Below are positions 6,001 to 9,000 of a stretch of DNA of 50,054 bases, piece after piece. The stretch is from a virus (taxonomy: Duplodnaviria > Heunggongvirae > Uroviricota > Caudoviricetes), in IMG/VR virus record IMGVR_UViG_2563366820_000003, positions 1-50,054 of that record; one strand, written 5' to 3'. Made by a program: the position numbers. Every line of letters begins with the position of its first letter. Position 1 is the stretch's first letter.

Positions 6001-9000
6001 CAGGGGGAAGGTCATTAACGACAGGAAAATTCGTGGCAACAGGTTTAAAATAGCTGCTCAGTTTTTTACCTGACTTAACGAGCAGGTAATCCAGAGTGGC
6101 ACAGGTCGATTCAAAATCGTCGCTTGCCCACAGGACGACGTCAGGTTCACCGGATGATTTTTTCGCTTTCCGTAACAGGAAGAGTGGTTTTGTGCTCATT
6201 GTTTTTTAACCTCAACTCAGATTAAAATTCGTTTTGTTCAGTGAATGATCTTGCCGGATACACACTGTTCATAGCCTGCGCCATACGCAGGCTATTTCTT
6301 TCAGATTTCACCGTTTAATTTCATTGCAATCAGAGTTGCCAGAAATCCGGCTTTTTTTTCTGCGGGCAGATTCTTTCCGATGTGAACCAGGCACATTTTT
6401 GTGACACCTTCATCAAGTGTTTTTACGTTGCCTGATGGACCGTCGATATCAACCACAGTGAATGGGGTTTCTTTATTTTCTGTTTTAATCACGTAGCCAA
6501 TGCGCTTTCCTTCCAGATTAACCTCGTGAACAATGTCATCGGTAGTTACAACAGTGGCTTCATAATTGGTAATCATGTTTTTCTCCTTAATTAGGTTGAG
6601 CGAATCCCTGCCATTGCTGGCATAAATTCAGTTTCGAATAGTCAGTTAATTAAAGTTCGTGTGCCATCTGGTCTTTTTCGGCACATATTTCACTACAATA
6701 TTTTTTCATTTCCGTCGTTGGGATAACTCCACGCATGAAATGAAGTGGTGTTTTAATGCTTTTGCTTTCTTCAATTTCTTTATTACAAAGGTGGTAAGCA
6801 CATTTTATTTTCTTAGTCTTCACCATGACTCCGCCTTTACAGGTAAACCATCACGACCGAGGAAGACTTTGATCATGCAGTCAGTAATGCATGTTTTTGT
6901 GGTCAGGCTACGGATATAAAGTTTCCTCTTTTTAATATTATTTGCCGAGGCAATATATGTCCGGCCTTCATGAAGAACATAATCGCCAGGAGTCACACAC
7001 TGACGTGGTATTTCATCAGTTCCGAAGTGATGTGCAATCATAATTATCTCCATTTTTACAAATGAACTTTGTTGATGCGGCGCCTGGTGCCTCCAGGTGA
7101 CTGCAACCAGTTAACAATTACAGTCGGCTTTCCCACCCAAACCAATAAGGACTAACATGACTTTTAACTGTGCCGCGTGCGCTTAGCCGCATTCACCGCA
7201 TCACAAAATTCACTTTAAAAAGGGCGGACATCAGTCGAACTTCAAGAAAAAACTGATGCCGCCAAGACTACACACAGCAGTGTTGTTATTCACAACCGGA
7301 GGCGCACTCCCACCATTTAAATTTAACAGACAAGACCGACTCTTTATGGATATCGGAAATGCGCCTTCGTGTTGTATGCCTGTCTTTTTACCACTTCAGG
7401 CTCGGTGGTATACTGGAGTTTCCACACAACCAGTAGGGAATTACTTATGCCTATTCAATCTCAACACAAAAATATTGATTATCTTTCCGCCAGATTAGAG
7501 GCTACCGCGCTTGTTCTTGAAGAACTTGTTAAACTTCTTACGCCAGAGCAGCGTGAAAAACTGAATCTGGCAATTGCCGGGCGTTGCCCAGGCGTGAAAA
7601 ATGCGTCTCTCAGGAATAGAAATTCTCCCGCATATCAATTATTACAGTTCATCAATGATGGCGTCGGCTGCAGCGATTAATTTTTCTAATGCCTCTTCGA
7701 CATGATAATTGTATGGTTGTAGTGACCTGAAATCTGCAATTGCATCAGCCAGGTTTCGTGCCATTACGGCTGGTGCGATTTTTTTTGCTGCTGATACCCG
7801 GCTGGCGAGTTCCAGTGCGAGACGTGCCTGCCCTGGAGTTAACTCTCTTTCCTTTGCCATTGTTGATGCCTGTACAGACAATTCATACGCCAGACAAAAT
7901 ACAGCATTATTCGTTTCTAGCGGATCAATACCCTGAGTAAATGTCATCTCATCTCTCCCCTTAACGCCGGGTGGCGGAACTGTTTGCTGAGAACACCGTG
8001 CGGTGTCTTGATGGAGAGTAATTTAGAATAACCTAACAAATGTGGCAAGTGTTTTTTGTTAGATCAATCTAACAAAAAGGGTGGGAGAATCTAAGCAACT
8101 GAAAAGGATGTTATTTTATTGATTTGTTTTTACGCGCTTTAAGCATTTCTTCGAAGAGTTTATTGAAATTCTCTACTCTTGCGCGCATTTCAGACAGCAA
8201 GGCTTCCTGCTCGGAGGATGGAAGAGCATCGAATAATTCGATCAATTCTTTGTGGTTGGGAGTTAACTCGGTTTCCACATGAAGTTCTTGTGCTGGTACT
8301 GGTGCCTTGTCTTCGTCACCAAACATTAGCCATGTAGGCGAGCACTTCAGCGCATCCGCTAAAGCAAACAACCGCTTCCCGACTGGTTGGGTTTCGTCTC
8401 TTTCCCATTGCGAAATTGTGACGTGAGCTACCCCAGCGAGGCGTGCAGCTTCTCGTTGTGTTAGGCGTAATTCTTTTCGTCGTGCCAGAACTCGCTGGCC
8501 TAGGGTTCTTGTATCCATAGTTAGGTAATTCTAATTTTTCTTGACTTAGATATCCCGCGCACATTACTGTTAGAAATATCTAACAAAAGGGGGCTTTGAT
8601 GCTTAAAGTTGATGCAATTACTTTTTTTGGCAGCAAAACAAAGCTTGCCAATGCCGCAGGAGTGAAACTGGCAAGTGTTGCTGCATGGGGTGAACTGGTT
8701 CCCGAAGGTCGCGCGATGCGCCTACAAAAAGCATCTGGCGGGGAGCTTCAGTACGACCCCAAAGTTTATGACGAATATCGTAAGGCAAAACGACCTGGGA
8801 AGGTGATTCATGAAAATCAGGCATGAGCACATCGAATCAGTGCTGTTAGCCCTGGCAGCCGAAAAAGGGCAGGCGTGGGTCGCTAACGCAATTACTGAAG
8901 AATATCTGCGGCAGGGGGGCGGCGAATTGCCCCTGGTACCAGGCAAGGACTGGAATAATCAGCAGAACATCTATCACCGTTGGTTAAAAGGTGAAACGAA

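Follow-up and report, generated by a model that had tools for sequence, protein, structure and literature searches.

The window analysed in this work, the whole 50,054-nucleotide stretch of virus record IMGVR_UViG_2563366820_000003, carries a repressor gene and a cro-like gene transcribed divergently and, on the other side of the repressor gene, two small convergent genes. The elements discussed below are the following.

7379-7446 (+): promoter and 5' untranslated region of the 77-aa gene, from a promoter scan
7447-7680 (+): orphan gene of 77 aa occupying the sieB slot; converges on the 101-aa gene, the two overlapping by 39 nt at their 3' ends
7642-7947 (-): 101-aa orphan gene, acidic product predicted to be all-helical; putative first ORF of a PL-type early-left operon
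7738-7788 (+): hairpin followed by eight U, resembling an intrinsic terminator, for the 77-aa transcript; antisense within the 101-aa ORF
7953-7980 (-): leader box GTTCCGCCACCCGGCGTTAAGGGGAGAG, nearly invariant, Shine-Dalgarno sequence included; mosaic joint at its 3' end
7993-8006 (-): small leader hairpin ACACCGCACGGTGT in the 5' untranslated region, folding no better than shuffles
8020-8048 (-): putative PL-type promoter, allele of Qin dicBp (TTGCCA, 17-nt spacer, TAAATT)
8022-8037 (no strand): putative promoter-proximal left operator, imperfect, TTTAGAATAACCTAAC, over the spacer and -10 hexamer of the left promoter
8056-8075 (no strand): putative promoter-distal left operator, perfect, TTGTTAGATCAATCTAACAA, directly upstream of the -35 hexamer
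8111-8518 (-): DicA-family repressor, 135 aa, HTH_3 (NCBIfam NF007257)
8520-8535 (no strand): putative right operator, imperfect, GTTAGGTAATTCTAAT, adjoining the repressor start codon
8541-8584 (+): putative PR-type promoter, analogue of dicCp (-35 TTGACT at 8541-8546; operator 8569-8584 over the -10)
8599-8826 (+): DicC-family Cro-like protein, 75 aa (NF007282; Pfam P22_Cro)
8810-9232 (+): YdaT/CII-like regulator, 140 aa (Pfam YdaT_toxin; PHROG 163, CII-like)
15589-15846 (+): Rem homologue (tblastn, 70% identity to K-12 Rem, E = 2e-33)

The first-pass annotation of this DNA had described the locus as a mosaic, in which a kil block resembling that of Rac meets a repressor and cro pair resembling that of Qin, and both parts of this description were borne out. 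The flank at 7054-7378 is ~97% identical to K-12 Rac, as counted from the alignment. The repressor scored 224.7 bits against the NCBIfam DicA model (cut-off 101), which covered its full length, and is 57% identical to K-12 Qin DicA from end to end; the Cro-like protein passed the DicC model with 154.5 bits (cut-off 130) and is 72% identical to its K-12 counterpart. The two genes are separated by an intergenic region of 80 bp. A 96% identical immunity module is present in E. coli MS 85-1, where it drives ydfA-ydfB…dicB-ydfD.

Only helix-turn-helix families were found in the repressor by Pfam, with no peptidase or autocleavage domain, and it would thus probably be inactivated by a Rem-like antirepressor, or the switch would be flipped through DicC. 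The Rem homologue at 15589-15846 is the probable antirepressor, as K-12 Rem lifts the repression of dicBp by DicA (PMC10448788). It is not similar to the 77-aa protein or to the 101-aa protein. We also rejected a LexA box in the neighbourhood of rem or of the switch: the sole CTGT-N8-ACAG sequence lies at 15043-15058, ~530 bp from rem, and occurs at chance frequency.

Two perfect GTTAGA-N4-TCTAAC palindromes, GTTAGATCAATCTAAC at 8058-8073 and GTTAGAAATATCTAAC at 8569-8584, are present where the first-pass annotation had placed them, and the motif did not arise once in 100 shuffles of the window. When up to two mismatches are allowed, four sites are found in 50 kb, and all four fall in the two intergenic regions that border the repressor gene; thus, together with the two weaker copies beside the perfect palindromes, every site of this kind is a neighbour of that gene. 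The weaker copies, at 8022-8037 and 8520-8535, had been overlooked before.

The arms of these sites, TTGTTAG-N6-CTAACAA, including those of the promoter-distal left operator at 8056-8075, are identical to the arms of Qin Oc, TTGTTAGTCATAACTAACAA, an experimentally defined operator which overlaps the -10 hexamer of dicC (PMC3441716). The sequence CTGTTAGAAATATCTAACAA at 8567-8586 aligns on Oc and covers the -10 region in the Cro-like promoter, and the right site at 8520-8535 aligns with a second Qin site, GTTAGCTAATGCTAAA. A single base change in Oc was sufficient to abolish the in vivo binding signal dependent on DicA, and within the dicA-dicC region of Qin binding in vivo was seen at Oc only, two other predicted sites being negative (PMC3441716). 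Because of this restriction to Oc in Qin, the imperfect sites of the window may be weak or may need cooperativity.

The distribution of the motif among related loci follows the type of repressor. Perfect GTTAG-N6-CTAAC occurs only in loci with the repressor type of the window (L001, L003 and L010) and in none of those in which the 101-aa gene is paired with another repressor; likewise, the promoter-distal left operator is kept in L001 and L010 and missing from loci with other repressors. In Pantoea, CTTAM-N6-KTAAG stands at the equivalent places, with five sites, all bordering the repressor gene. The DicA-like repressor is there 54% identical and has a different recognition helix, so that the half-sites differ in step with the helix in the one case in which helices were compared. 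Palindromes of a TCATGAG type are laid out in locus L017 as in the window. This constancy of layout in relatives with other specificities is comparative evidence for operator function. The match to Qin Oc and the confinement to loci with this repressor type support the palindromes as operator-type sites, and we infer that the 135-aa protein binds the 16-20-bp TTGTTAG-N6-CTAACAA palindromes on both sides of its own gene.

The palindrome at 8058-8073 could also be read mainly as an RNA hairpin which ends the repressor transcript, and not as a protein site. Its RNA would form an 11-bp hairpin of -9.6 kcal/mol, 38 nt beyond the repressor stop codon. Nevertheless, neither strand has a U tract after it, its stem is A-U-rich, and 11 of 200 shuffles folded equally well; moreover, the aligned Qin site makes a poor hairpin, and the same half-site is repeated at three other places incapable of termination. 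We regard this explanation as very improbable.

As operators, the left pair would occupy a promoter. The left operators and the -35 hexamer line up base for base with the dicBp region of K-12, and the promoter aligns also with that upstream of ydfA in E. coli MS 85-1. In a promoter scan it matches 9 of 12 bases, a score which is equally frequent in shuffled sequence; the assignment therefore draws its weight from the alignment to dicBp and not from this match. Transcription from Qin dicBp is repressed by DicA, with 22-fold derepression in a dicA deletion, and is induced 165-fold by Rem (PMC10448788). The presence of a promoter overlapping 8022-8037 had escaped the first-pass annotation.

Between this promoter and the 101-aa ORF lies the leader box, which stands ahead of the first PL gene in Rac, in Qin and in further loci, regardless of which repressor or which first gene is present. 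The megablast breakpoint, 7948, falls at the 3' end of the box, and the invariant box marks an exchange point of first PL genes. We also considered a structured RNA of the nut or put kind in this leader and rejected it: RNAalifold, run on 11 loci, supported no base pairs, Rfam found no family there, and the fold energy of the small leader hairpin does not differ from that of shuffled sequence (z = -0.04).

The 101-aa ORF is well initiated, as had been claimed, and lies on the strand of the repressor gene, with AAGGGGAGAG before its start. It is a real gene: comparison with its E. coli, Salmonella and Pantoea homologues gave dN/dS of 0.20-0.31. The protein has a pI of 4.7 and a net charge of -5, and four helices were predicted by AlphaFold with pLDDT of 58-59 (two runs, with 5 and 10 sequences). 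No match was obtained in Pfam, PHROGs, PADLOC at E <= 1, NCBIfam or a PDB profile search. Foldseek against the PDB returned generic or designed helical bundles at E >= 0.2, and we treat these hits, like the models, as uninformative about function. An exhaustive HMM search of 1.84 billion proteins recovered seven representative clusters, all of one small family.

In all loci except the rearranged Salmonella ones, the ORF that comes first after the repressor gene is a member of this family, and a reading of the upstream sequences found a promoter with palindromes before the family member in the window, C7/Rac-SA53, Pantoea, TUM1881 and L017. The first-pass annotation had named the gene repressor-linked, and this does not hold as far as a particular repressor is concerned. 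The 101-aa gene, and the cassette which it forms with the 77-aa gene, is found beside several different repressors, and the repressor of the window is in turn followed by ydfA as the first gene in L010 and by a 92-aa ORF as the first gene in L001. The 92-aa product of the first gene after the same repressor in UR21 has no homology to the 101-aa protein, and the combination of this repressor with the 101-aa gene is absent from complete E. coli genomes.

The same annotation had assigned to the gene an exclusion or defence function expressed in the lysogen. The rexAB genes of λ, which are linked to the repressor, expressed in the lysogen and active in exclusion, are the model for such a role. The 101-aa gene could resemble them, being cotranscribed with, or linked to, the repressor gene: it is on the same strand and directly after it, the window has no intrinsic terminator after the repressor stop codon and before the left promoter, the family directly follows a repressor gene in most loci, and the stretch from the repressor gene to kil, where sieB or relBE can be carried, is a hypervariable hotspot for accessory genes. 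On the other hand, two operators and a homologue of the DicA-repressed dicBp (PMC10448788) separate the two genes, and for this reason the 101-aa gene was rejected as cotranscribed cargo of the rexAB type. In C7/Rac-SA53, Pantoea and TUM1881 an intrinsic terminator parts the repressor transcript from the PL-type promoter. The relBE genes of TUM1881, which are true cargo cotranscribed with the repressor, lie upstream of the terminator and promoter, and the 101-aa homologue lies downstream of them. The lack of any PADLOC, Pfam, PHROG or NCBIfam match likewise gives an exclusion or defence function no support. Expression of the gene in the lysogen for such a purpose appears to us quite unlikely, although some read-through from the repressor promoter may occur, given the missing terminator.

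The left operators over a promoter like dicBp indicate that a repressed early-left operon most likely begins with the 101-aa ORF, which would then not be an exclusion gene expressed in the lysogen. We therefore consider it highly probable that the region is a DicA/DicC-type immunity switch of a Rac/Qin-mosaic lambdoid E. coli prophage, in which the 101-aa gene is early and repressed in the lysogen. The sites at 8520-8535 and 8569-8584 would control the divergent promoters of the repressor and of the DicC-type Cro, and those at 8022-8037 and 8058-8073, lying on or just upstream of the sigma-70-type promoter at 8048-8020 (-), would control the counterpart of λ PL. In the lysogen, the repressor would shut the left promoter. 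Upon induction, whether by the Rem-like antirepressor (15589-15846) or by a flip of the switch through DicC, a leftward transcript would begin ~65 nt upstream of the 101-aa ORF, pass the conserved leader and express the 101-aa gene first, before reaching a KilS-like terminator and then kil, ydaE and recE. Expression at the head of the operon after derepression would make the 101-aa protein an early lytic accessory protein.

The result is chiefly corrective, and it concerns the way in which prophage loci of the DicA/Rac type are to be read: a second pair of operators downstream of the repressor gene marks a PL-type early promoter, so that the next gene is expected to be repressed in the lysogen. 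The switch itself is of an ordinary, already understood prophage type. The cassette poses a minor question, and nothing here suggests a new kind of system.

A better candidate for a gene expressed in the lysogen is the convergent 77-aa gene, judged by its own operator-free promoter and its position in the sieB slot. As a separate gene with its own promoter, starting at 7447, it had been missed previously. The promoter consists of TTTACC (7387-7392), a 16-nt spacer and a TG-extended TATACT (7409-7414), followed by the Shine-Dalgarno sequence AGGGAA, and no DicA-type site is present within the module at 7379-7446. Window and Pantoea share 88.6% identity over this module, compared with 61% over the coding sequences. 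Homologues of the gene are present in E. coli, Salmonella and Pantoea, with dN/dS of 0.21-0.29 except for the closest pair (0.59, with Rac-SA53), which has too few changes to carry weight. The 77-aa and 101-aa genes thus are both under purifying selection and both belong to tiny orphan families; no family was found for the 77-aa protein in Pfam, PHROGs, NCBIfam or PADLOC (E <= 1). Its PDB profile hits were designed helical proteins only and were taken as compositional. The gene stands in the place of sieB of related prophages, and in L017 this slot is filled by a Pfam SieB protein; the 77-aa protein shares with SieB (PF14163) the genomic slot and orientation only, with no Pfam match, and was rejected as a SieB protein.

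The arrangement raises the possibility that the pair is one undescribed two-gene module, in which a lysogen-expressed 77-aa protein is countered or replaced by the 101-aa protein. The constitutive promoter would supply the 77-aa protein in the lysogen, for example for exclusion or abortive infection, and the 101-aa protein, made first after derepression, would neutralise it or a host target; mutually exclusive expression of the two genes would follow from antisense transcription and from their 39-nt convergent overlap. Such a scheme would resemble the sieB/esc logic of P22. The genes co-occur in E. coli, Salmonella and Pantoea, and the 39-nt overlap is kept in four loci that were read and is seen also in L020 with an 80-aa gene known by position alone. 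The strong conservation of the operator-free promoter, the apparent end of the 77-aa transcript inside the 101-aa ORF of the window and the presence of SieB in the same slot of relatives would fit as well. However, other convergent partners of 101-aa homologues are a non-homologous 92-aa protein, SieB, a 74-aa gene known by position alone, or none called. The promoter module also stands upstream of unrelated genes in other Rac-like prophages and drives them too, and neither Pantoea nor Salmonella showed the terminator-like hairpin of the 77-aa gene at the corresponding position. A dedicated two-gene module seems to us rather doubtful, and we keep to the reading of the 101-aa gene as an early gene of the repressed left operon. 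The cassette, present in 18 of 5,426 complete E. coli genomes, is rare yet selectively maintained, and it sits in the sieB/ydaF hotspot.

The closest parallel to the switch is Qin. Both have a 135-aa DicA-family repressor divergent from a DicC-type Cro, with one operator over the -10 of the Cro-like promoter; in both, a second set of operators and a promoter come right downstream of the repressor gene and are followed by the same ~60-nt leader, and another part of the prophage encodes a Rem homologue. The window differs from Qin in that the repressors are only 57% identical, the central six operator bases differ, and the promoter-distal left site is here a perfect palindrome. The left operon consists of the 101-aa gene and then a Rac-type kil/recE arm, whereas that of Qin is ydfABC-dicF-dicB.

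As in λ, sites for the repressor flank its gene and would control two operons, that of cro to the right and an early one to the left; within the leftward arm, accessory genes of the sieB type are encoded on the opposite strand. Two sites can be recognised on each side here, in contrast to three in λ. The repressor is small and not cleavable, and presumably antirepressor-induced, and no rex-like genes lie in the window between its gene and PL. No homologue of N was found. The 101-aa gene, as the first PL gene, was considered for this role and rejected, its product being acidic and not arginine-rich and the leader box being invariant though the first genes are unrelated.

With the racR-ydaG-ydaF/sieB region of K-12 Rac the window shares the kil-proximal flank, including the KilS sRNA region, the leader box, and the scheme in which small early genes read leftward converge on a rightward gene under a promoter of its own. 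Rac has the RacR repressor and other operators, and its sieB, ydaF and ydaG are replaced here by the non-homologous 77-aa and 101-aa genes. The same cassette is found as rac10/rac11 in Escherichia phage Rac-SA53 (KU052037), with ~94-95% protein identity; both genes are annotated there as hypothetical proteins only, and our search of the literature on rac10/rac11 found nothing. Its position, with kilR on one side and the repressor gene on the other, is unchanged, although the neighbouring repressor of Rac-SA53 has 153 aa and comes with a terminator and with another promoter and other operators.

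The 135-aa repressor of the window and the 75-aa protein encoded divergently from it form a DicA/DicC-type switch, as the first-pass annotation had proposed. The former, whose helix-turn-helix is its sole domain, passes the NCBI DicA model (224.7 bits; cut-off, 101) and shares 57% identity with K-12 DicA along its entire length; the latter passes the DicC model (154.5; cut-off, 130) and shares 72% identity with DicC. Switches of this kind are already known and characterised, and the one in the window is a new allele. The features on which the following argument depends are:

8569-8584, perfect palindrome GTTAGAAATATCTAAC, candidate operator
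8520-8535, imperfect site, found when two mismatches were allowed
8111-8518, minus strand, repressor gene (135 aa, helix-turn-helix)
8058-8073, perfect palindrome GTTAGATCAATCTAAC, candidate operator
8022-8037, imperfect site, found when two mismatches were allowed
8048-8020, minus strand, predicted sigma-70-type promoter, TTGCCA / 17 nt / TAAATT
7953-7980, minus strand, near-invariant leader box GTTCCGCCACCCGGCGTTAAGGGGAGAG, directly 5' of the first ORF of the PL-type (leftward early) operon
7642-7947, minus strand, 101-aa ORF, preceded by AAGGGGAGAG
7447-7680, plus strand, 77-aa gene, convergent with the 101-aa gene
7387-7414, plus strand, predicted TG-extended promoter of the 77-aa gene
7216-7312, minus strand, homologue of KilS, a small RNA of the K-12 Rac prophage; includes intrinsic terminator GGCGGCATCAG…CTGATGTCCGCC and a T run
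15589-15846, plus strand, homologue of the antirepressor Rem, 70% identical to K-12 Rem

Both perfect palindromes reported earlier were recovered; the window has two copies of the pattern, and 100 shuffles gave none. With up to two mismatches there are four sites in the 50 kb, all four within two short intergenic stretches on either side of the repressor gene. The window sites TTGTTAG-ATCAAT-CTAACAA and cTGTTAG-AAATAT-CTAACAA share arms and spacing with the experimentally defined Qin operator Oc, TTGTTAGTCATAACTAACAA, in which a single base change eliminates the DicA-dependent binding signal in vivo (PMC3441716). In the K-12 alignment, the perfect site of the divergent region lands on Oc and its imperfect neighbour on a second Qin site. 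On the other side, the perfect site lies directly upstream of the -35 hexamer of the predicted minus-strand promoter, which overlaps the imperfect one. The counterpart of this stretch in K-12 is the intergenic region between dicA and ydfA (dicBp); the two line up at the -35 hexamer and at both sites, and the leader of about 60 nt that follows is nearly identical to that of Qin. The dicBp promoter is the PL analogue, derepressed 22-fold by dicA deletion and induced 165-fold by Rem (PMC10448788). About six tandem TTGTATTTG repeats are present at about 15395-15455, ~150 bp 5' of the rem homologue.

Among the fetched loci, perfect GTTAG-N6-CTAAC was found only in the three with this DicA-like repressor type, and in none of those pairing the 101-aa gene with another repressor. 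A Pantoea prophage encodes a DicA-like repressor 54% identical to that of the window (recognition helix VSYVTVYKWE vs VAHVTISQWE) and bears five CTTAM-N6-KTAAG palindromes, all beside the repressor gene and at the same positions as in the window; judged from sequence, its half-sites differ jointly with the recognition helix. In locus L017, TCATGAG-type palindromes follow the window's order of upstream site, -35 hexamer, in-spacer site and TAAATT. Thus, the layout is conserved among these relatives while the half-sites differ. In E. coli TUM1881 (2850-2960 of the fetched locus), the PL-type -35 hexamer lies inside a palindrome with 15-bp arms, CAATTAAAAACTGTT…AACAGTTTTTAATTG; this is a further immunity specificity with the layout unchanged.

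The mosaic structure suggested earlier is also supported. A module present in many E. coli genomes matches the immunity module (7948-8600) at 96% identity, and in strain MS 85-1 it drives ydfA-ydfB…dicB-ydfD. The megablast breakpoint, 7948, is one base off the 101-aa start codon, and mosaic joints are placed at the 3' end of the leader box. This box, shared with L001, L002, L004, L009, L012, L013, L014, L017 and L018, is kept irrespective of the repressor or of the first gene (ydaG, ydfA, a 92-aa ORF or the 101-aa family). The only variants observed were CGCT…AGCG (Qin), CGCT…GGCG (MS 85-1) and CCACCGGGCG (L008), and RNAalifold gave no support for a structure in it. The kil-proximal flank (7054-7378) is ~97% identical to K-12, as counted from the alignment; the KilS-like terminator sits between the cassette of 101-aa and 77-aa genes and kil, within the path of the PL-type transcript to kil and recE.

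The proposal that the 101-aa gene is linked to the repressor was not borne out. The gene adjoins various repressors of 133 to 162 aa (E. coli C7, phage Rac-SA53, where rac11/rac10 is the counterpart of the cassette, a Logan contig, Pantoea, TUM1881 and divergent family members), the window-type repressor is found elsewhere with ydfA or an unrelated 92-aa ORF, and the exact combination of the two occurs in no complete E. coli genome. The suggested role of the 101-aa gene as a lysogen-expressed exclusion or defence function is unsupported and probably reversed, as a palindrome-bearing promoter separates it from the repressor gene. Members of the family are the first ORF past the repressor gene in all loci except the rearranged Salmonella ones, and such a promoter precedes them wherever upstream sequence was read. 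The repressor transcripts of C7/Rac-SA53, Pantoea and TUM1881 each meet an intrinsic terminator before that promoter. The order in TUM1881 is repressor gene, relBE, terminator, PL-type promoter and a 99-aa homologue of the 101-aa gene; relBE there exemplifies repressor-cotranscribed cargo in this phage group, with the homologue past the promoter. This placement, together with the terminators and relBE of the relatives, indicates that the 101-aa gene is most likely an early-left gene, repressed in the lysogen. Because no terminator separates the repressor gene from the left promoter in the window, low-level read-through of the repressor transcript may occur.

In three Salmonella enterica loci (L005-L007, including serovar Hull), a 101-aa/80-aa cassette follows a gene for a Q-type antiterminator and two small ORFs and is not adjacent to a repressor gene, which suggests that the prophage has been rearranged or degraded. 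The 77-aa homologue of L007 retains only residues 28-77.

The 101-aa gene overlaps the 3' end of the 77-aa gene by 39 nt, identically in E. coli, Salmonella and Pantoea. Purifying selection acts on both (dN/dS of 0.20-0.31 and 0.21-0.29, respectively; the closest 77-aa pair gives 0.59, with changes too few to weigh). Homologues of the 101-aa gene are also paired with other convergent partners, so coupling to the 77-aa gene is not obligatory. The complete cassette was found in 18 of 5,426 complete E. coli genomes, and E. coli records list these exact proteins as hypothetical. Neither protein matched any library searched, Pfam, PHROGs, PADLOC and NCBIfam among them, and the 101-aa family comprises seven representative clusters among 1.84 billion proteins. 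The 101-aa protein is acidic (pI 4.7), with four predicted helices; its models reach a pLDDT of only 58-59 and gave generic matches in the fold search.

No DicA-type site was found within the 77-aa promoter. The promoter and 5' UTR module (7379-7446) shares 88.6% identity with its Pantoea counterpart (coding sequences, 61%), also stands ahead of unrelated genes in other Rac-like prophages, and is a portable unit. Approximately 50 further complete E. coli genomes have only a portion, in most cases its initial 57-81 bases; where this was examined, in two genomes, the match precedes different small plus-strand genes, of 59 aa in O157:H7 strain 2571 (L013, 2001-2081) and 92 aa in TUM1881 (L014, 2001-2064). 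Its ACCAC-N10-GTGGT inverted repeat is recognisable also upstream of sieB in UR21, where, as in K-12 Rac, sieB occupies the slot of the 77-aa gene; in L017 the occupant is a Pfam SieB protein. In the window the 77-aa transcript appears, from its predicted hairpin and eight U, to end within the antisense 101-aa ORF, and this terminator was not seen in Pantoea or Salmonella.

Elsewhere in the window, Rfam matches above the gathering score were:

1557-1735, RalA, antitoxin sRNA of the Rac RalR system
13801-13967, sok antitoxin RNA
17676-17826, two adjoining tRNA genes
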